A stretch of 11,907 nucleotides of DNA. Origin: Polyangiaceae bacterium (lineage in GTDB: Bacteria; Myxococcota_A; Polyangia; Polyangiales; Polyangiaceae). The position numbers and the translations under genes were made by a program. This document shows, one piece after another, positions 2,362 to 11,907 of this stretch. Positions within the stretch are counted from its first letter, which is position 1. Each line of letters begins with the position of its first letter. The stretch spans positions 1 to 11,907 of the forward strand of contig JAWKRE010000002.1 of the NCBI GenBank assembly GCA_041389765.1. Reading direction: 5' to 3'. Under the pieces are notes generated by a model that was given only the letters and a program-made list of their open reading frames with translations, did no database searches and was not told the DNA's origin.

Positions 2362-3463
2362 CTAGAATCTCCCCCCCACCGACAGGGCAGCTCCCTCCGG
2401 CGTGACGATGGGCGAGATGGCCAGTGTCCGCCTCACTGCCCCTGTCTTCTGCTCCTTGGGCCCGCTCACGAAGAACAGCACGAGCCCCGCCCCCGCCGCC
2501 GCGAGCCCCACCGGCAGCGCGATGGTCGAGACGAGCGCCTTCGTCCCCGCATCATTGATGACCGCCCGCCCCGCCGGACTGCACACCTTGCCGGGACACA
2601 GCGCCGGATCGCTCTCCGCGTTCCCCACGTCCGCCGCCGCGAGCCCCCCCAGCACGCCCCCCACCGCGGCCCCCGCAATGCCCACCCCCATGAGCACGTA
2701 CGAGGCTGTCCGCATCCCTGACCCCTCCTCGCCCCCGCCTGTCGCCGTTGCTGTCGGCGCGGCTGTGACCATGGCAGTCCCTGTCGGCGCAGCCGTGGTG
2801 TCCGGCGCGGTCGTGCCGCTCGCTGCGGCCGTGGCCGTGGCTGTCGGCGCAGGCTCGGGCGACTTCGTGAGAGGGGGAATCGCCGCCGTCTTCGAGTCCG
2901 CGTTGGGCCCCACGTTCACGGTGACTGTATACGCCTCATACCCCGGCGCCACCGCCTCGATCGTGTGATCGCCCGGGTCCACGAACAGGGGAGTCCCCAG
3001 CATGGCGGCCCCCATCTCCACCCCGTCGCTCTTCACCACGAGCCCCGGCACCGCCGCCGCCGTGATGGTCAGTCGCGACAGCTTCGGTTCGAGCTGCTTG
3101 GCCAGGTCGCGCGCCCCTGCTCGCGGTCCTGCCCGAGCTGCCCCGCGAGCACCGCCGCTTCCTTGTATTCCGTGAACGCCGACGCCGTCTTCCCGAGGCT
3201 CTCGTAGCACCGCGCCAGGTTGAGCTGAGTCCCCGGCGACGGATCGAGCTTCTGGCTCTCCGCGAACTTGGGGCAAGCCTCCGCGTACTTCTTCTCCCCC
3301 ATGAGCTTCTTGCCCGCCTGAAACAGCGACTCTGCCGCGACCTTCGCGCCTGCGCCGGGGCCGCGGGCGCGTGAAGCGCAGCGCTCACCGCGAGCGCGAC
3401 AGCCACGATGAGCCGCCGCCCGTGAAGCGCCCTTGTCGGTCTCGAACCGTCTCTAGCGATCAT
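2362..3463 (-). pseudogene. Signal-peptide TPR-like + PEGA-domain protein with two C-terminal TM segments; needs 2 frameshifts (about 3115 and about 3340) to read
   Basis: Three minus-strand ORF pieces join into one protein. Piece 2936..3463 gives the N-terminus MIARDGSRPTRALHGRRLIVAVALAVSAALHAPAAPAQA (signal peptide). Piece 3069..3302 gives GEKKYAEACPKFAESQKLDPSPGTQLNLARCYESLGKTASAFTEYKEAAVLAGQLGQDREQG (TPR-like). Piece 2362..3276 gives ARDLAKQLEPKLSRLTIT...VVKSDGVEMGAAMLGTPLFVDPGDHTIEAVAPGYEAYTVTVNV (PEGA-like), then a T/A/P linker and two hydrophobic helices. The junction at 3114-3117 is repaired by adding one C to a C4 run, which gives ...DREQGARDLAKQ. Confidence 0.7.
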
Positions 3464-5268
3464 CGAAGATGCTCTTTCCCTTGGTATCGGCGGGCTTTGC
3501 CGTCGAAGTAGCGGTCGCCTTGGCCCGCCCGCACTGCCGGTCGCGCCTCTCCCCGAGGTGGGATGGTTCCGCCGGCGACTGCCGCACTGGTACGTGGCCC
3601 CCGCCGCCGCGTCGTCGCTCGATGTCGACCCGCTCGCCGTCGCTGACGCCTCCGGAGCGGGAGTGTCCGTCGCCGCCGCAGCCGCGCTGGCAGTGGCGGT
3701 GACGCTGGCAGTGACACTGGCAGTCTCGCCGGAGGAGCCACGCTCGTCGCCGGAGAGCCCATCGCCTTCTCCGCCGCCGCCGTGGCCGGGCCGGAGCCGA
3801 CGCCGACCCGATCCCCACGAGCAGCGCCCCCGCGATCGCCCCGCCCGCGACGAGCACCGCCGCCGCGATCAGCAGCGGCGCCTTGCTCGAATTCGCCGGT
3901 GGAGGCGCCGGCGCCGCGATCACCATATCCGGCGCCGTCGACGGCCCGATCCCCGCCCCGCCCTTTCGGCCCCGAGCGCCCCCGGAGGCACGGTGTTGCC
4001 CGTCGCCGCCGCCTGCCCCGGAGCCCCTGTCGCGCCCGCGGCCGGCCCCGGCCCCGAGGCCCCGGTCACACCCCGGCCCCCGCCTGTCCCGGAGCCCCCA
4101 CCTGTCCCGGAAGCCCCGCCGCCGCCCCCAAAGGCGCATCGAGCGCGATGGTCCCCCCCGCCAGCGGAGCCCTCCCCGCCTGCCCCGCAGGCATCGCAGG
4201 CGCGTCGATCGCGACCGTGCCCCCGCGATCGGAGGCCGCGGATCCATCGCCAGCGTCCCCCCGCGTGCGCGCCGAGCCGGTGGGGATACGGGCTGTGGGG
4301 ACACCCCCGTGGGCGGCGTCAGCCCCGCAGCGCGGGCGATCCGATCGATGTTGGGCTGCGATCGTGCGGGCGCGAACGGCGCCAGCGCCACCGCAAACTC
4401 CGCGATGCTGCCATACCGCTCTGCCCTGTCGCGGGCGTACGCGCGCTCCAGCACCGGCGCGAGCGAGGGCGCAGATCCGGCTGCACGTTCGCGAGCGGCG
4501 TGGGAGTCCCCGTGAGCACCTCCGCGCAGAGCTGAGGCAGAGTGTCCGCATAGAAAGGCTGCTTGCCCGCGAGCAGCTCGTAGAGCGAGATCCCCAGAGC
4601 GTAGATGTCCGTGCGGTGATCGACCCCCGCGTCTGCTGCATCTGCTCCGGCGACATGTACAGCGCGGACCCCATCGCCGTCATCGTCTTGGTGAGGTTCT
4701 CGGTGGACTCTGCCATCTTCGAGATGCCGAAATCGAGCACCTTCACCAGCGCCGAGCCGTCGTGCCGCCGCGTGAGGAACAGATTGGCAGGCTTGATGTC
4801 GCGGTGAACGATCCCCGCGGCGTGCGCCTCCGTGAGGGCCTCCGCCGCCTGAAGCATTGTAGTCCACCGCGTCGTCCAGCTTCTGCACGCCGTTCTTCAT
4901 CAGCTCCCCCGCGAGGTCGTGCCCTGGAGGAACTCCATCACCATGTACGGAGCCTCGTTTTCGAGCGTCCCGACGTCGCTCACGCGCGCCACGTGCTCGC
5001 TCTTGATCTTCACCGCCGCCTTCCCTCGCGGAGAAAGCGCGCCACCGCCTCCGGGTGCTGCGAACGTGGATGTCAGGAACTTGAGGGCGACCCGATCATC
5101 GAGCACCATGTGCCGCGCCTCGACGACGACCCCATCCCCCCTGTCCGATCACGCGGTCGACTCGATACTTGCCCGCGAGGACGGTGCCCGGCGCGACAGG
5201 CGCGTCGTTGGCGACCGCCGGCCCTGCCGACTCCGGGGTTCCTGCGGGGTAGTGGTGGACTCCGTCAT
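3453..5268 (-). pseudogene. Receptor-type Hanks Ser/Thr protein kinase (catalytic domain + Pro/Gly linker + single TM + repetitive extracellular tail), at least 7 frameshifts
   Basis: The pieces on the minus strand are as follows. An ATG at 5266-5268 sits 5 nt after the upstream gene stop. GTVLAGKYRVDRVIGQGGMG lies in a second frame. Then comes VVVEARHMVLDDRVALKFL...APYMVMEFLQG (ORF 4900..5109), then [20 protein letters not shown] (4319..4900), then [28 protein letters not shown]...VLDFGISK...YMSPEQ (4066..4857). The kinase continues with [24 protein letters not shown] (4319..4900 again) and ...[19 protein letters not shown], followed by the TM helix KAPLLIAAAVLVAGGAIAGALLVGIGS (3453..4454). 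After that comes (VTAS)n low complexity. The shift at 5130-5133 is a missing C in a C4 run. The exact 3' end is ambiguous, between 3453 and 3470. Confidence 0.85.
3683..3725 (-). repeat. In-frame 12-nt tandem repeat (gctggcagtgac, about 3.5 copies; encodes VTAS repeats) in the post-TM tail of kinase 2
   Basis: Direct reading of ctggcagtggcggtgacgctggcagtgacactggcagt. Confidence 0.7.
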
Positions 5269-5274
5269 GACCGT

Positions 5275-7225
5275 TACCTGCCCAGCTTTCCGAGGATCAC
5301 ATCATTCGAGCCGACCGGCGTGACCGCCCCACCGCCGAAGTCCGCAGTCTGGCTGAACGAGCCCGCCAGCAGCGAATACCCGGCCCCGTCGACAGAGCCA
5401 GTCCACCGTGCCCCCAGCGCGTGAACCCACTGCACGTTGCCCGAGCTGTTCAGCTTGGCGACGAACGACCCCGCCTTGGGCGTCCCGGAGTCGGCAGCAT
5501 GGTGTTGCCCAGCATGAAGGGCTCATCGTACACCCCGGCGATCCACGGCCCGTCCGTCGTCGCCGTGACGCCGTGGAGCCTGTCGTTCCCGGCCCGCCGA
5601 ACTGCTTTTGCCACAGGACAGTCCCGCTCGAATTGTAGGCCACCACCACGATGTCCTGCGCGTCCGGCGTGAGCACCGTCCCGTTGAAGTTGCTCGGCGC
5701 GGTCAGCGTCCCTGCCACGATGGGCCCCGAGAGCCCCTGCGCCACCTTCGAACGAGAACCCACCCACGTCCGCCCCCTTCATCCACAAGGGCGCTCCGTT
5801 CAGGTCAATCTTGGCGAGGAAGAACGTCTGTCCCGCCGCGAGCGGCCCTGTCCCGATATCGAACCCCGGAGTGCTCGTCGTCCCCACCACGTACGCCGCG
5901 CCGCCCACGTAGTCTCCCCCAGGCTCCCTGACCCGAACATCCCCTCATCCCCTGACCCGCCCAGGTTGATCTTCCACTTGACCTGATTGGCCCCGTCGTA
6001 TTTCACGAGGAAGATGTCCGACCCCCCCACCTTCGCGATGGGGTGCGTGTTTCCCTGAGCCGACGAACACCGAGTCGCTGTCGAACTCGCCGGCCACGAG
6101 GTACCCGTCGAACACCCACTCTGTGCTCACACCTTCTGGTTGTTCCCGCCCCCGTACCCCAGGCTGAAGATGTGATTCCCGGACGTGTCATACCGCGCCA
6201 CGAACCCGTCGAACCCCTGTGAGATCCCCAGCGCGCCCCCGCCCGGGTCGAAGTTCCCGAACAGATAATACCCCGCCGCGAGCACCCCGTTGTTGTTGTG
6301 GAAGCTCACGTCGTTGATCGCCTCCGACGCGTCCCCGGAGAGCTGCTTGCTCCACCCGAACGACCCGCCGGGTTGTAGACAGCCAGGTACACATCCCCCC
6401 AGTCGTTCCCTGCGAATTCATGAACCTGCCGCCCATGTCGAGCGACCCCTTGAACCACCCGAGAATACGGCCTTGTTCGAGAACCCCGCGACGGCCACCC
6501 CGAGCTGTACTCGCTGCCGAACCCCCTTGGGAACGACCACACCGCAGTTGAACCCGTTGCAGTCCTCGTCCTCCGGCGCCCCGCAGAACTCGTCCGCCGG
6601 CACCACCTGCCCCAGGCACAGGTTGGGGTTCATGAGATCTGGCAGGATGCCAGTCGCCGGACACTGCAACGTCGACGACTTGCACTGTCCCACACCGGCA
6701 GTCCCCGCGGGCCCCAAAACACGTGAGCGCCGTGTCGGTGTGCAACACCCGTTCTCCGCCAGCGAGAACCCGTCGCAGTCGTCATCCTCCGGCGTCGTGC
6801 AATCCTCGAAGTTGCCGGGCAGCGTCTGCCCCTTGCAGGCGTCGAAGCCCGTCCCCTCCAGGTTGCACTTCTGCTGCCCCTTCTTGCAGACCCCCACGCC
6901 CTCCGTCCCGTTCGGCCCCTCGTAGCAATCCACCGACTCGCCCGGCGTGCAGATCATGCCCCGCCGGTGCCCCCGGTGCCGCCGGTGCCGCCGCCGCCTT
7001 GCGCTGTCCCGCCGGTGCCGCCGCCGCCTTGCGAGGTGCCCCCGGTGCCGCCGCCGCCCTGCGACGTCCCCCGGTGCCGCCCTGCGTCGTGCCGCCGGTG
7101 TTGCCGCCGGAGCCCCCGTCGGCCGCGTCCGTGAAGTCGTCGATGCCGAGGATCAGCCCGCACCCGGTGGAGGCCAGGGTGAGCGGAAACGTCGCGGCGA
7201 TGAAGCGAAGGGTGTACGTTGCATG
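5275..7225 (-). pseudogene. Lipoprotein with Gly/Thr-rich linker, Cys-rich E-x-C-x3-E-D-D-D-C-D/N-G repeats (MopE/'putative metal-binding motif'-like) and SBBP beta-propeller repeats; at least 6 frameshifts
   Basis: The ATG at 7223-7225 plus one C-run repair gives MQRTPLRFIAATFPLTLASTGC, a lipoprotein signal. The linker is GGSGGNTGGTTQGGTGG(TSQGGGGTGG)x3. The Cys-rich block is at 6418..6957(-): CTPGESVDCYEG...EDCTTPEDDDCDG...EFCGAPEDEDCNG. SBBP-like repeats are spread over three frames: FDGFVARYDTSGNHIFSLGYGGG, SDIFLVKYDGANQVKWKINLGGSGDEG, FLAKIDLNGAPLWMKG, VVVAYNSSGTVLWQKQFGGPG and FVAKLNSSGNVQWVHALG. The protein ends ...SNDVILGKLGR with TAA at 5275-5277. The shifts at 7068-7072, 6959-6962 and 7210-7212 are all minus-one events in homopolymers. 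Confidence 0.8.
6958..7100 (-). repeat. In-frame about 30-nt tandem repeat (gccggtgccgccgccgccttgcg.ggt.cc, 4-5 copies) encoding the GGTGGTSQGG linker; one copy carries a frameshift
   Basis: Direct reading of 6958-7100 shows near-identical 30-mers. The last copy lacks 6 nt and has a C5 run where the others imply C6. Confidence 0.7.
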
Positions 7226-7394
7226 GGGATCCTCGGCGCGGAGGACGCGCCCCGCCCGATGATCGCCGAACGTGCAGCGCCATCGCAAGCCTCTCGGCGC
7301 CGCCGCCGGCCTTCTTCTCCCGGCGGTCCCCCTCCGAGGCCCTCTTCTGCGATTTACGTGACCCGAGCGCGCCGAACCCTCTACCCTTGCCGCG

Positions 7395-9021
7395 ATGGAA
7401 GAAGGCGCGGATCCCAGGCAGGAAGGCACCGGCACCGAGTCCGTCTACGCTCCCCCAAGGCATGACGGCCCGCTCGACGATCTCGTGTCCCGCGCGATGG
7501 AGCCTCGGCACCGAGCCGACCGTCCGGCAGCAGAACGGCATCTACGAGGTCGTCGGCGAGATCGTCTCCCGTACAACAACCACGATCTCGCCCCCGCCCG
7601 CATCCGCGATCGCAAGTGGGCGATGCAGGACATCGCCGCGTCTCTGGATCAGCATGTCCGCCTGTGTCCCCACGTACATGCTCGCCTCCTCGCTCATCTC
7701 CGAGGGCATGAGCTGGTGGCAGGCCGTGCTCACCATCTTCCTCGGCAACTGCGTCGTCCTCTTGCCGATGGTCGCCAACGCCCACGCCGGCACCAAATAC
7801 GGCATCCCGTTCCCGTCTACTGCCGCCCTTCGTTCGAATCCTCGGCGCCAACGTCCCCGCGCTTCTCCGCGCCCTCGTCGCGTGCGGCTGGTTCGGAATC
7901 CAGGCCTGGATTGGCGGCTGGGCCATCTACAAGATCCTCACTGTCTACTTCCCCGCCTGGGAGAAGCTCCCGAAGTCCTACGGAGGGATCAACGGCGCCG
8001 GGCTCGTCTGCTTCCTCTTCTTCTGGGGCATCAACATGTTCGTGATCTACCGAGGAATCGAGTCGATCCGCATCCTCCTCAACATCAAGGCCCTCTCCTC
8101 ATCGCCCTTGGCCTGGCGCTCCTCACGTGGGCTTACGTCAAGGCCGGCGGCTTTGGCCCCATGCTCACGAAGCCCTCTGCCTTCGAGCCCGGCCAGCCCA
8201 AAGCCGGCCAGTTCTGGACCTTCTTCTTCCCCGCCCTGACAGGCATGGTCGGCTTCTGGGCCACCCTCTCCCTCAACATCCCTGACTTCACCAGATACGC
8301 CTTCTCCCAGAAGGACCAGGCCGCCGGCCAGGCCCTCGGACTCCCCACCACCATGGGCCTATTCTCCTTCATCGGAGTCGCCGTCACCAGCGCCACATTG
8401 GTCATCTACGGAGAGACCGTCTGGGACCCCGTTGTCCTGATCCCAAGTTCAAGCACCCGGCGATTCTGGTCTTCGCCCCCGCCGCCCTCTGCATTGCCAC
8501 GCTGGCCACCAACATCGCCGCCAACGTCGCAGCCCTGCCAACGACTTCGCCAATCTCTGGCCCTCCAAGATCTCCTTCCGCCGCGGCGGCTACATCACCG
8601 GTGTCATCGGCATTGCCATCCTCCCTGGCGCCTCGTCGCCGACCCCACCGGCTACATCTTCACCTGGCTCGTCGGCTACTCCGCCTCCTCGGCTCGATCG
8701 GCGGAATCCTCATCTGCGACTACTTCGGATCCGCCGCGCCAAGCTCGATCTCGTGAAGCTCACAGGAAGGATGGCCCTTACTGGTACACGGGTGGCTGGA
8801 ACTACAGGGCCTCTCGTCGCCTTGATGGCCGGCATCCTCCCCAATCTCCCCGGCTTCCTCGGCACGATCAAGGTCGCCAAGGTCGCCCCTCTATGGATGA
8901 CCCTCTACAACTACGCGCCTGGTTCGTAGGCTTCGGCCTCCTTCCTTGGTTCTACACCGTCCTCCTGGGGAGACCGCGCCCCTGCCGACTCTCCCCTGCC
9001 GGGCAGACCACCCCCGCCTGA
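7395..9021 (+). pseudogene. NCS1 family nucleobase:cation symporter (PucI/allantoin-permease-like); at least 6 frameshifts
   Basis: The following plus-strand pieces lie across three frames: RLPYNNHDLAPARIRDRKWAMQDIAASL; then WISMSACVPTYMLASSLISEGMSWWQAVLTIFLGNCVVLLPMVANAHAGTKYGIPFP; then [40 protein letters not shown]...MFVIYRGIESIRILLNIKA; then PLLIALGLALLTWAYVKAGGFGP...WATLSLNIPDFTRYAFSQKDQAAGQALGLPTTMGLFSFIGVAVTSATLVIYGETVWDPV; and finally ...LYNYAWFVGFGLLPWFYTVLLG. This matches NCS1 hallmarks (NGHAGTKYG.PFPV, ILNIPDFTR, LY..SWFVG) as I recall them. The N-terminal start is ATG 7395 or ATG 7497. One shift at about 7648 is a tc-dinucleotide indel. Confidence 0.85.
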
Positions 9022-9027
9022 CCTGCC

Positions 9028-9118
9028 GACTCCCGCCTTCGACTCCCGCCTTCGACTCCCGCCTTCGACTCCCGCCTTCGACTCCCGCTGTTGACCCCCG
9101 CCTTCGACTCGCCCCGAA
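9028..9118. repeat. 13-bp tandem repeat gactcccgccttc: 4 perfect copies (9028-9079) plus 3 degenerate copies, intergenic between convergent genes
   Basis: Direct reading shows perfect copies at 9028, 9041, 9054 and 9067. The copies at 9080, 9093 and 9106 carry 3, 1 and several mismatches. The unit length is not a multiple of 3. Confidence 0.9.
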
Positions 9119-9130
9119 CAGGACCGACGC

Positions 9131-10019
9131 TCAGCCTTCGTTGCGGACGCCCTTCTCGCGCGCTGACTGCACGAGGAAGAGCGCCAGCATGTACACATTG
9201 GCGACCGTCAGCCGGAACAGCACATATTCCGCCAGGTACCCTGTGCATGCGCAGACGCCGAGCAGGAGCCCGTGAGTGGAAGGCCTGAGAAACGCCCACC
9301 CCCGCGCCACCGGAGCCAGCGCCCGCCCGTACCGAGACGCCTGCTCCCGGTTGCTGCCGCTCTCCTTCTTCTTCCGCCCCAGCGCCGACTGCACCTGAAG
9401 AAACAGCGCATAGATCCGATAAAAGATCAGGTGAAAGAACGAGGCTCCTCGCCTTCGAGCGCGCGATATCGGCCCGTGTCTCTTCGAGATCATCCCCTCC
9501 GGTAGCTCGACCCTGAGAGCGTCAGATACCGATTCTTGAAATGATCAAACAGCGTCCCTTGCAGAAGGATGCTCAAGAGCCCCCCCACCGCCAGCAGCGC
9601 CCCTTGTCCCCGTGAGTCTCGTGCAGGTGAAGCGCCAGCGTGACCCCTGTCGCCACCCCCACGATGTAATCGCTCATCCCATCCAGGATGCGCCCGAGCC
9701 GCGACGACGTGCCCGGCGCGCGTGCGAGCTGCCCGTCCGCACAATCGAGGATCCCGTAGAGCAGCGTGAGCCCCGACGCGATGTAGATCGAGCGTGCGTC
9801 CGTGAACCGAAAGAGGACCGCCCCCGCCAGCCCGCTCGCAATGCTGAGGACGGTCATGCCGTTCGCGCTCAGCGGTGTGGGGAGCGCCAGCCGCACGAAG
9901 AGATAGGCAGTCGGCCGAAAGAAGTAGAGATCGAACGGAGTCTCGACCTGCCCCGGCTTCAGCGTGGCCCGGAATGACGCGATCTTCGGTTTCGCAGCGT
10001 GGCTATCGGCGGTCACCAT
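9131..10019 (-). pseudogene. CDP-alcohol phosphatidyltransferase family membrane protein; 2 frameshifts (about 9600 and about 9495)
   Basis: The minus-strand piece 9573..10211 contains MVTADSHAAKPKIASFRATLKPGQVETPFDLYFFRPTAYLFVRLALPTPLSANGMTVLSIASGLAGAVLFRF...LLYGILDCADGQLARAPGTSSRLGRILDGMSDYIVGV. This is the D-G-x2-A-R-x8-G-x3-D-x3-D signature. The protein continues in 9490..9744 (ALLAVGGLLSILLQGTLFDHFKNRY) and 9131..9493 (...TGYLAEYVLFRLTVANVYMLALFLVQS...), ending at the stop at 9131. The start is taken as the ATG at 10017-10019. The ORF is open upstream to 10211, so the N-terminus could be longer. Confidence 0.8.
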
Positions 10020-10274
10020 GGACAGGCATCCAGAGGGCTCAGCGGTGCGCCGAGCAGGCCCCACAAAGCGCACACCCCGAGCGCGCCTCTGCCCCGCGAG
10101 GTCCGCCTCGGTCATCCAAGCGTGCGTGCTGGAGAACACCGTCATCACATCATCGACCGACGGAGGCGGCGTATCTTCCAGCGGAGTCCCCGGAAGCGGC
10201 CGGAACACCACCGGCAGCGGGATCGCCCTGTATCCAGCACTGCCCGCACCGCAGACAGCGTATCTTCCAGCGGC

Positions 10275-11129
10275 TCAAGCCCGATGATGATCTGACTTCG
10301 ACACCTGGTTCTCCCCGAGGATCTTCACCGCGTACGCGAGGGCTTGGAGGTAGCGATCCCGCGAGATGGCCGCCTTCCCGGCATCATCTGCCTTCGAACG
10401 TCCTCGTCCCAGATTTCGAGGTTGAGGAGGATGGAATCGAGCCCCGCATCCTTGAGCCGATCGACAGTCGTCCGTATCGGGCGGCGCCATCTCGACGCAG
10501 ACAGGGATGCTCGCGTGCTTCTTCAATTCCGCGATGGCATCGGCCTGTGCCGAGCGCTCTTGTCCGTGAGCCACGTCCCCCGCCGAACGAGATCTCCGCC
10601 GCCGGATTCTCCTCCAGCGCCACCTTCACCACCTCGATGATGGGCTCGATCGCTCGCCACCGCGCCTTCTGGTCGATCTTCATCGCACAGAACTTGCACA
10701 TCTGATCCCCTGCCAGTAATCGCACCCCTGATAAATCGCTGTATACAGCGAAGTGTCACAGTGCGCCGACACCACCATGGACATGGGCGTCCCATCCTGA
10801 GTGGCCCGCGAATACCAGCGAGGCCACGCAAACGGCGTCGCGGTGACAAGCCGCTCCTCCCCTTCGTAGACGACGTAAGTCCCGTCTTCTTTTGCGAGGT
10901 GGAGCGGAGATCGCCGCGCAAACGGTTCGAGGACGGGCGCATTGACGGCAGTGTGCGACTCCCCGTCATGGAGCCGAAAAAACCGCCCTTGCGACAGGCC
11001 CGCCCGCTTGTGCCGATAGTGATTCTCGTCCGTGAGCTCCGCCCATAGCTCGTCCGGCACAAAGAGCCCTTGCGCAAAGATCTTCGCCTTCGCGAGCATC
11101 AGCCTCTCGGTGATGGGCCGGCGTGCCAT
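10275..11129 (-). pseudogene. Radical-SAM-like Fe-S enzyme with about 150-aa N-terminal extension (function unknown); at least 4 frameshifts
   Basis: The N-terminal piece 10680..11294(-) reads MARRPITERLMLAKAKIFAQGLFVPDELWAEL...MSMVVSAHCDTSLYTAIYQGCDYWQG. It runs into 10384..10725(-), DQMCKFCAMKIDQKARWRAIEPIIEVVKVALEENPAAEISFGGG, which has a Cys cluster and a GGE/GGD glycine motif. Then comes ...AIAELKKHASIPVCVE (10275..10574 frame), then TVDRLKDAGLDSILLNLEIWDEDVRRQMMPG (third frame), then KAAISRDRYLQALAYAVKILGENQVSKSDHHRA and the stop at 10275. The pattern (cluster, GGEP-like motif, ...LkdaGld.i.lslE...) fits the radical SAM fold. The family assignment is uncertain. An alternative start is at 11294. 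Confidence 0.5.
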
Positions 11130-11408
11130 GTCCGGCGCCGAGGGGACGGAAGCACCAGCACCCCCGGTGGTCGCCGGCCCCGCCCTGTCCGGACCGAGGG
11201 TCAGAGCAGGATCCAGGACACCGGCCGAGCCGCCCGCCGGAGCAGAACCTTGCCGATCGCCCGCCTGAACGAGAGGAAGTACACGCACCTGCAAGAGCGT
11301 AGGAGCAAACGCACTCCGTCGTCAAACCCCCCCGCGCCTTCCTGTGTGGATCGACCCACTGAACCTGTTAGTCTCGGTGTGCTCCAGCAATCGCCAGGTT
11401 CAACAGTC

Positions 11409-11648
11409 ATGACGGAGAGCGAGCTTCTCGACCGCTTTGGGGTGTCTCCCGCCGAGGCCGATCTCGACGAGATTCGGTCCCTTCTCCACGAGCACGCCGC
11501 CAGGGAACGGGACAGTCAAGGAGAGGGCGACACAGAGGTCATGAAGCTCTGTTGTGTGCAGCTATTCTCTGTCGGATTGCTGGAGGAGGCGGTACTATGG
11601 CGTGGGCGCCCAAGGAACGCCGTAGGCGCCCGCCTTTACCCCGCGTGA
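11409..11648 (+). CDS. Small hypothetical protein (79 aa) in a lower-GC patch
   Basis: ATG at 11409, from ORF track 11070..11648, gives MTESELLDRFGVSPAEADLDEIRSLLHEHAARERDSQGEGDTEVMKLCCVQLFSVGLLEEAVLWRGRPRNAVGARLYPA. The composition is less Ala/Arg/Pro-biased than the GC-frame artefacts around it. Local GC is visibly lower, and codons such as TTG, TGT and TTC are used. Only a weak SD is present. Confidence 0.35.
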   Translation: MTESELLDRFGVSPAEADLDEIRSLLHEHAARERDSQGEGDTEVMKLCCVQLFSVGLLEEAVLWRGRPRNAVGARLYPA

Positions 11649-11797
11649 GGGTGGCAGAGGACACGCCCCGTCGTCAGCTCCGCCACGAGCCACCGACGCA
11701 CGGTGCTTGCCGGCGGCTCGTCTCCCCTCCCGCGCCCCTCCCGCCCCAAGCGCCATCCTGCGCACAGCCCCCATTCCGGCTTGCCAGCGCCCCGTGA
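11597..11797 (+). CDS. Possible overlapping small ORF (66 aa, Arg/Pro-rich) with strong SD GGAGGAGG 7 nt upstream; may be spurious
   Basis: GGAGGAGG at 11582-11589, then ATG at 11597, gives MAWAPKERRRRPPLPRVRVAEDTPRRQ.... It overlaps the previous ORF by 52 nt in another frame. The product is compositionally like GC-driven junk. Confidence 0.2.
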   Translation: MAWAPKERRRRPPLPRVRVAEDTPRRQLRHEPPTHGACRRLVSPPAPLPPQAPSCAQPPFRLASAP

Positions 11798-11816
11798 TTT
11801 GTGAAAGCCTCCCCTC

Positions 11817-11907
11817 ATGGCCTCTTCGCCCCCACCGGGCGAGCCCGCCCATCTCCCGTCCCCCAACCTCGCGGCCCCCGTCGCCAGCCTCCCCACCCCC
11901 CCGGTCG
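11817..11907 (+). CDS. Possible 5' end of a gene running off the window (MASSPPPGEPAHLPSPNLAAPVASLPTPPV...)
   Basis: ATG at 11817 is followed by an open frame to the window end. It is not in the ORF track because no stop is present. The N-terminus is Pro-rich. This is very tentative. Confidence 0.15.
   Translation, partial: MASSPPPGEPAHLPSPNLAAPVASLPTPPV

Follow-up and report, generated by a model that had tools for sequence, protein, structure and literature searches.

Introduction

Radical S-adenosylmethionine (SAM) enzymes known to modify lipids almost all act on the chains, and a 2026 review of these enzymes gives calditol synthase (Cds) as the only headgroup case and never mentions cytidine diphosphate (CDP) (PMC13459092). 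On the side of headgroup activation, PntC and LicC activate 2-aminoethylphosphonate (AEP) and phosphocholine to cytidine monophosphate (CMP)-AEP and CDP-choline, from which lipids or glycans then receive the headgroup (PMC6697681, which also mentions the Fom1 cytidylyltransferase). Clusters in which Ppm, Ppd and AEPT genes stand with CDP-alcohol (CDP-OH) transferases are predicted phosphonolipid clusters, and the same 2022 phosphonate inventory names a radical SAM enzyme only in a Campylobacter group (PMC8942020). The role of NitD, a radical SAM protein of the widespread Nit1C cluster, has been unsettled since 2005 (PMC1199592). Here, we describe a locus in an 11,907-nucleotide stretch of Polyangiaceae DNA (assembly GCA_041389765.1, contig JAWKRE010000002.1; hereafter the window; G+C ~67%), in which a radical SAM gene with an atypical Cys motif is followed by a CDP-alcohol phosphotransferase gene. 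A preliminary description of the window had proposed an uncharacterised lipid or headgroup modification pair. Comparative genomics supports this proposal, through adjacency in every informative locus and the gene content of relatives, from which we infer the function.

Results

Structure of the locus

The radical SAM gene, of a variant-motif NitD-like family, lies at 10039..11288 on the minus strand, as read from three-frame translation, an indel map against the related locus L001 (a Polyangiaceae metagenome-assembled genome (MAG) contig, GCA_041389705.1), the intact ortholog P0001 (MEZ4313988.1, 94% identical to the window) and matches to PF04055 and NF045502 (related loci and proteins are designated by L and P numbers). 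In the window, the gene is split into at least six open reading frame (ORF) fragments by ten sequencing-type indels (10089, 10229, 10298, 10377, 10465, 10547, 10567, 10577, 10711, and 10729), eight of which change the frame. The single G-run repair made earlier (10711) does join the Cys motif, whereas the whole gene needs all ten repairs. The C-terminus, GCALCGACSAHR and the stop codon 10041–10039, is read at 10077–10039, ~240 nucleotides (nt) past position 10275, at which the gene had previously been ended.

Ortholog annotation places the start at ATG 11129 (MARRPITE). However, VRVLPL is read upstream of this ATG in both the window and L001, and ortholog N-termini conserve MRxLPL. The true start is probably GTG 11288, because this common N-terminus is recovered from there. 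In most orthologs, the M-R-x-L-P-L peptide and a variable Pro/Ala-rich linker precede the annotated start (window 11288–11130, minus strand).

The CDP-alcohol phosphotransferase (CDP-OH PT) gene lies at 9131..10019 on the minus strand, opens with MVTADSH at 10019, is broken by ~11 indels relative to L001, and encodes ~297 amino acids when intact. Its catalytic signature, D-x2-D-G-x2-A-R-x8-G-x3-D-x3-D (DCADGQLARAPGTSSRLGRILDGMSD), is read directly from the sequence at 9669..9746 (minus strand). The two genes are separated by a 19-nt spacer (10020..10038, minus strand), which is also 19 nt long in L001 and in which no terminator-like site was found. This short same-strand spacing implies that the two genes are co-transcribed.

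The radical SAM protein

The repaired protein matches Pfam Radical_SAM (PF04055) at residues 143–291 with 60.1 bits, against a gathering threshold of 29.5. It also passes the NCBIfam model NF045502, "variant_rSAM" (cut-off 125 bits; 196.7 bits for the window after repair, 193.4 bits for P0001), over approximately residues 12–339, including the N-terminal domain. In contrast, TIGR04043 (MSMEG_0568/NitD) is failed, with 184.3 bits for the window, 205.9 bits for P0001, and 179.3 bits for P0030 against a cut-off of 303.7, while the true member P0067 scores 556.6 bits. By sequence comparison, the MSMEG_0568/NitD family is the sister family of this radical SAM clade.

The predicted SAM-cluster binding loop, C-x8-C-x2-C, was located at 10681..10733 (minus strand) by frame translation and ortholog alignment. 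Its two halves, YQGCDYWQG (10733–10707) and DQMCKFCAM (10707–10681), stand in adjacent minus-strand frames and join when the 1-nt deletion at 10711 (a C-run, G-run on the coding strand) is repaired against L001, which confirms the spacing first reported for the window. A 3-nt deletion at 10729 drops one Gly from the loop of the window; intact orthologs read YQGGCDYWQGDQMCKFCAM. C137, C146, and C149 are invariant in 39/39 clade sequences, whereas 36 of 40 NitD/MSMEG_0568-type relatives have C-x9-C-x2-C. The canonical CX3CX2C spacing is found neither in the repaired window protein nor in any of the 39 orthologs. The three conserved Cys residues lie on the loop after strand 1 of a partial (beta/alpha) TIM barrel.

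The atypical spacing is thus real. It is a catalogued but unstudied variant, and not a new one, because RadicalSAM.org already lists CX8CX2C and CX9CX2C as sibling megaclusters (PMC9477430) and NCBIfam holds the "variant_rSAM" model. The barrel motifs reported downstream of the loop are present as well, including ISFGGG, IPVCVEMAPPDTDD, LKDAGLDSILLNLE, MMPG, IIIGLEPLED, and VVFRPLPGTPLED.

At the C-terminus, a G-C-x2-C-G-A-C-S motif (GCALCGACSAHR, 10042..10077, minus strand) is conserved in 79/79 family sequences, with columns C357, C360, and C363 invariant; the Cys residues of P0001 are, in full, 124, 137, 146, 149, 214, 357, 360, and 363. The triad C-x2-C-x2-C probably provides candidate ligands of an auxiliary Fe-S cluster, and the Fe-S single-cluster domain models gave no match to the repaired protein. 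The closest folds of the core, a partial TIM barrel, are those of LipA, BioB, HydE, PylB, and NifB, with QueE lower; its type is therefore that of LipA/BioB/NifB and not that of QueE. Neither the profile searches nor the fold comparison placed the protein in a well-characterised family with a canonical cluster.

A homolog search returned ~50 clusters at 57–94% identity, from Polyangiaceae, Polyangiales, Minicystis, Byssovorax, and a few MAGs labelled Planctomycetota, and then a drop to 29–37% identity, at which MSMEG_0568-family proteins appear. Clustering of the library at 50% identity leaves a single full-length representative for the clade, and the wider family comprises 138 representatives at E <= 1e-30. 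Domain arrangements in this wider family vary (P0365, P0424, P0434, P0384, P0416, P0420, and P0445): some proteins join the radical SAM module to a methyltransferase, GNAT, or ATP-grasp domain, and in other cases it follows N-terminal regions of 430–620 amino acids without a Pfam match.

The N-terminal domain

The family-specific N-terminal domain (10725..11129, minus strand) begins with three helices, continues with a beta unit of five strands, and carries the invariant motif HYRHKRAGLSQGRFF. The preliminary description had given it ~150 amino acids that could not be placed; the size is closer to 135, and the domain is still unplaceable. It shares the invariant positions G21, G44, S74, Y106, G113, and L128 with MSMEG_0568-type proteins. 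A PDB sequence-profile search with the clade alignment gave no match, no fold relative of the domain was found in the PDB, and the only Pfam match to the N-terminus was a sub-threshold chance match to acVLRF1 (17.7 bits against 27.1). The possibility that the N-terminal ORF is a separate, unrelated gene was rejected: in every ortholog of the ~50 clusters, residues 1 to ~135 run on without a break into the barrel, and both family profiles cover them. The region is therefore a domain of the family.

The CDP-alcohol phosphotransferase

The lipid headgroup transferase reported earlier after a short gap matches PF01066 with 48.8–49.1 bits, against a cut-off of 22. It is a polytopic membrane protein, and its intact ortholog P0121 (MEZ4313989.1, 297 amino acids) carries the full catalytic signature. 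Among the named NCBIfam equivalogs (PgsA, PssA, PIP/AIP synthase, ClsA, and DIPPS), the protein falls below every cut-off; the best is archaetidylinositol-phosphate (AIP) synthase, with 37.9 bits against 180. The best solved relative is AF2299 (E-value 3.4e-6), followed by PIP synthases and DIPPS. The clade comprises ~68 clusters at >= 44% identity, beyond which identity drops to <= 35%. An outgroup CDP-OH PT beyond the clade likewise adjoins a nucleotidyltransferase. In the outgroup genome L026, two tandem 291-residue paralogs (6001–7748) adjoin a protein with an ATP-synt_ab Pfam match and a 300-residue gene without a Pfam match.

Conservation of the gene pair

Pairing was counted over 17 distinct loci with a readable flank, the window included (L002 and L004 count as one, as do L015, L016, and L022). 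The CDP-OH PT gene is immediately downstream of the radical SAM gene in 14 of them (the window, L001, L002, L003, L005–L008, L010–L012, L017, L018, and L030) and one gene away in L009, L015, and L023. The two genes are thus adjacent or one gene apart in 17/17 loci, and the flanking genes are otherwise unrelated among the paired loci. MAGs that carry the two-gene form include GCA_041389705.1, GCA_046351455.1, and GCA_046351495.1. In addition, at least 16 radical SAM/CDP-OH PT pairs match by the size of the longest contig across the two homolog lists. Both clades are tight and similar in size, and beyond them identity is <=37%. In a neighbour-joining tree, the variant C clusters described below branch first, then variant B, and the two-gene Polyangiales form is derived and monophyletic. 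These results indicate that, in uncultured bacteria of the Polyangiales, the two genes form a genuine and conserved operon.

In L002, six genes (12257–18741) are inserted between the transferase and a permease, encoding a 328-residue protein of no known type, MBOAT, an 80-residue protein, an SDR-MaoC fusion, an FkbH-like protein, and a MaoC dehydratase. The insertion, which is absent from L001 and the window, may serve to tailor lipids or acyl carriers. In L030, an OPT-family gene (8076–10001) ends exactly at the start of the radical SAM gene, and in L014, an EamA-family gene (1613–2536) follows the outgroup protein P0052.

Related clusters

Relatives of the pair occur in two larger arrangements. 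In variant B (L009, L015, and L023), genes for an alpha/beta hydrolase and a FemAB-like protein precede those for the radical SAM protein, an NTP_transf_3 protein (a LicC-like cytidylyltransferase), and the CDP-OH PT. Variant C (L019, L020, L021, and L029) comprises LPG_synthase_TM, the radical SAM protein, and NTP_transf_3. In L029, variant C is preceded by genes for phosphoenolpyruvate mutase (TIGR02320, 377.6 bits against a cut-off of 319.55), phosphonopyruvate decarboxylase (296 bits against 312.5, from an N-terminally cut protein), and AEP aminotransferase (351.8 bits against 360.8), and is followed by a convergent CEPT1/CHPT1-like phosphotransferase (E-value 2e-13 to human CEPT1). The radical SAM gene of L029 is split by an assembly frameshift and is 90–98% identical to P0041. 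The complete AEP cluster (L029 1451–10741, L019 89–7045) also includes a P450 and a protein of 184–307 amino acids of no known type, and its composition is not described in the two phosphonate surveys consulted.

The LicC/PntC-like cytidylyltransferase is present in L009, L015, L019–L021, L023, and L029, and absent, within the flanks examined, from the window and 13 other two-gene loci. The nearest named relatives of these enzymes are "phosphocholine cytidylyltransferase family" proteins, and a homolog search gave ~20 clusters at >= 50% identity, none of them named Polyangiaceae. Across the sequences compared, headgroup-activating and headgroup-transferring enzymes show an obligate genomic association with the radical SAM gene.

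Flanking regions of the window

Upstream of the operon, no Rfam match to a riboswitch or other RNA was obtained in the window, and no sigma-70-like promoter was found upstream of the radical SAM gene. In L001, a stretch of ~975 nt (9026–10000) that precedes the annotated start of the radical SAM gene has no gene call; in the window, ~620 nt of that stretch (11289–11907) lie beyond the probable GTG start. A plus-strand ORF is present at 11070–11648, of which the portion from 11410 opens with MTESELLDRF.

Downstream, a frameshifted NCS1-type permease gene (7219–9021, plus strand; Transp_cyt_pur in an intact relative) is convergent with the operon. It also lies downstream in L001 and, past the six-gene insertion, in L002. 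The permease is common only to close relatives, and no functional link to the operon is therefore implied. Further away, a frameshifted Ser/Thr protein kinase gene (2362–5109, minus strand) gives Pkinase matches in two ORF fragments and weak, sub-threshold PEGA and TPR matches in its C-terminal region, and a Cys-rich TPR-containing protein is encoded at 1239–2198. Several overlapping ORF fragments rich in Gly, Cys, and Thr, without a Pfam match, occupy 5302–6957 (minus strand) and may be a frameshifted secreted repeat protein.

Discussion

Proposed function

On balance, and with modest confidence, the gene context suggests that the operon most likely serves an unusual polar headgroup, which would be tailored and then attached to a membrane lipid. 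The first gene encodes a soluble radical SAM enzyme, in which C-x8-C-x2-C, on an extended loop that follows barrel strand 1, would hold the [4Fe-4S] cluster. The enzyme would reductively cleave SAM to yield the 5'-deoxyadenosyl radical, and this radical would tailor the precursor of the headgroup, a small aminoalkyl phosphate or phosphonate that may be free, CMP/CDP-activated, or lipid-bound. The C-terminal C-x2-C-x2-C tail would bind a second, auxiliary Fe-S cluster. The second gene encodes the membrane CDP-alcohol phosphotransferase, which would couple the headgroup via a phosphodiester to the membrane lipid. In the two-gene form, either CDP-diacylglycerol would be the donor and the tailored alcohol the acceptor, or a CDP-headgroup made by an unlinked cytidylyltransferase would be the donor.

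A bolder extension of this proposal is tentative and has a low probability: the enzyme may be the founder of a class of radical SAM enzymes that tailor headgroups, with aminoethyl phosphate or phosphonate, either CMP/CDP-activated or lipid-bound, as the substrate. The C-terminal cluster would then be a substrate anchor or, as in LipA, the closest structural relative, a sacrificial sulfur donor, the product would be an unseen, possibly sulfur-containing, phospho- or phosphonolipid headgroup in Polyangiales, and the same chemistry would explain the role of NitD in Nit1C.

Several points weigh against a headgroup function. The partner transferase of variant C is convergent and comes from a different subfamily, so that what is strictly kept is the link with the pathway rather than with one protein. 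P0108, a member of the sister family, sits in a non-lipid cluster with a nitrilase, GNAT, glycosyltransferase, and flavoprotein. Neither the window nor the other two-gene loci hold a cytidylyltransferase or headgroup-precursor gene within 6–10 kb, so that the gene content does not define the donor and acceptor of the two-gene form. Every carrier is a MAG or metagenome contig. In the literature searched, no family member, NitD included, has a known reaction or biochemical characterisation. Finally, membrane CDP-alcohol phosphotransferases can also yield soluble products, as DIPP synthase does.

Alternative explanations

The same enzymes may instead make a soluble phosphodiester, a compatible solute or metabolite in the IPCT/DIPPS manner (di-myo-inositol phosphate), and not a membrane lipid. 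This is unlikely, although it accommodates a number of observations: the best NCBIfam matches of the cytidylyltransferases include bifunctional IPCT/DIPPS (35–60 bits, below cut-off), AF2299 followed by PIP synthases and DIPPS are the best solved relatives of the CDP-OH PT, and some loci have a transporter gene next to them (OPT in L030 and EamA beside the outgroup protein P0052). However, the related clusters carry LPG_synthase_TM (MprF flippase-like), FemAB-like, and CEPT1/CHPT1-like proteins, which point to membrane lipids, and the nearest named relatives of the cytidylyltransferases are of the phosphocholine/AEP type, not the inositol type.

It is quite improbable that the radical SAM enzyme acts on the lipid chains or the glycerol backbone (C-C, C-S, or ether chemistry of the Tes/GDGT-MAS type) and not on the headgroup. 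The closest folds are those of small-molecule or cofactor enzymes (LipA, BioB, HydE, PylB, and NifB), and the wider family shows fusions with GNAT, methyltransferase, and ATP-grasp domains and includes NitD of a soluble-metabolite cluster. In addition, every conserved partner gene, whether for a cytidylyltransferase, AEP synthesis, or a phosphotransferase, is headgroup-related.

A very small probability is assigned to the locus being a decayed pseudogene pair in its host organism, with real frameshifts. The indel counts (ten for the radical SAM gene, ~eleven for the transferase gene) would fit such decay, as would the truncated 148-residue transferase fragment of the window, which is identical to the GenBank protein MEZ4293509.1 (from a 203,907-nt Polyangiaceae MAG contig). 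However, when window 7111–11907 was aligned to L001 (96.1% identity, 117 mismatches), the 4,855 aligned nt contained 58 gap openings, 46 of them deletions and 12 insertions in the window; these are mostly 1-nt deletions in short runs, and throughout the 4.8 kb they are as dense in the spacers as in each of the three genes. Furthermore, the codon differences are biased towards synonymous changes (synonymous:non-synonymous, 21:2 for the radical SAM gene, 20:7 for the transferase, and 32:14 for the permease), and intact orthologs exist at 94% identity. Because the indels are spread over three genes and spacers and the substitutions are mostly synonymous, the alignment indicates that the indels are sequencing errors and not gene decay, and that purifying selection acts on the genes; the pseudogene explanation was rejected on these grounds. 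Within the radical SAM gene, the 21:2 ratio, together with the invariant Cys loop and C-terminal triad, is a sequence-level sign of functional constraint that backs the proposed headgroup function.

As an observation on the assembly, every gene of the window appears frameshifted, and the high indel density measured at 7111–11907 probably holds for the whole window. In practical terms, the assembly is rich in errors, and its broken ORFs have been deposited in GenBank as truncated proteins.

The remaining possibility, a QueE-type or other characterised radical SAM enzyme whose cluster loop carries an insertion, rests on the resemblance remarked in the preliminary description and on the long insertions that some QueE enzymes carry between the first two Cys residues, and it is rejected as having a negligible probability, since no QueE profile matches and the QueE fold scores lower than LipA, BioB, and NifB.

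Significance

The protein is not a new kind of radical SAM superfamily member, because both its motif variant and its family are already catalogued. Literature searches returned no description of the clade, of its strict pairing with a CDP-alcohol phosphotransferase, or of its presence in AEP clusters, and searches for MSMEG_0568/TIGR04043 returned nothing. The locus places a radical SAM family that is curated but has no assigned function, and that includes NitD, in a concrete and testable context. It leads to the predictions of an undescribed membrane lipid headgroup in uncultured Polyangiales and of a radical tailoring step in AEP lipid clusters. It also combines three unstudied features, namely the C-x8-C-x2-C loop, the invariant C-terminal Cys triad, and an N-terminal domain without a fold relative in the PDB.

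Comparison with known systems

Cds provides the functional precedent: this radical SAM enzyme is responsible for making or remodelling the polar headgroup of a lipid (PMC13459092). Unlike the enzyme proposed here, it acts on the sugar headgroup of archaeal tetraethers and has no link to a CDP-alcohol phosphotransferase, and no homology to the present protein was detected beyond the superfamily level.

With the Pnt/Kennedy-type pathways, the relatives share Ppm, Ppd, AEP aminotransferase, a LicC-like cytidylyltransferase, and either a CEPT1-like or the clade-specific CDP-OH PT, whereas the pathways as described lack a radical SAM enzyme of the present family (PMC6697681, PMC8942020). The operon of the window differs from them in holding neither a cytidylyltransferase nor phosphonate genes. 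The fosfomycin pathway offers, in Fom3, a radical SAM precedent for a CMP-activated phosphonate substrate, which comes from the LicC-like cytidylyltransferase domain of Fom1. Fom3, a cobalamin-dependent methyltransferase, has both a B12 domain and CX3CX2C, neither of which is present in the protein described here.

LipA, BioB, and NifB have an akin core fold. In contrast to them, the present protein lacks CX3CX2C and the N-terminal CX4CX5C of LipA, has an extra N-terminal domain of 135 amino acids, and carries its putative auxiliary ligands at the extreme C-terminus. Its scores against the LipA, BioB, and NifB profiles are far below the cut-offs, and LipS2 gives 33–35 bits against 270.

The MSMEG_0568/NitD proteins of Nit1C clusters (TIGR04043) are 29–37% identical to the present protein over the full length. 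They mostly have C-x9 where the present protein has C-x8, and the latter reaches 184–206 bits against the TIGR04043 cut-off of 303.7. Nit1C genes (nitrilase, GNAT, glycosyltransferase, and flavoprotein) occur in L028 and around P0108, whereas none is found in the window, L001–L003, or L030. Both families nevertheless have the N-terminal domain, the extended Cys loop, the invariant C-terminal GCxxCGACS, and the barrel motifs GGT, PP, MPGK, QVSS, GL, and GTPLE in common.

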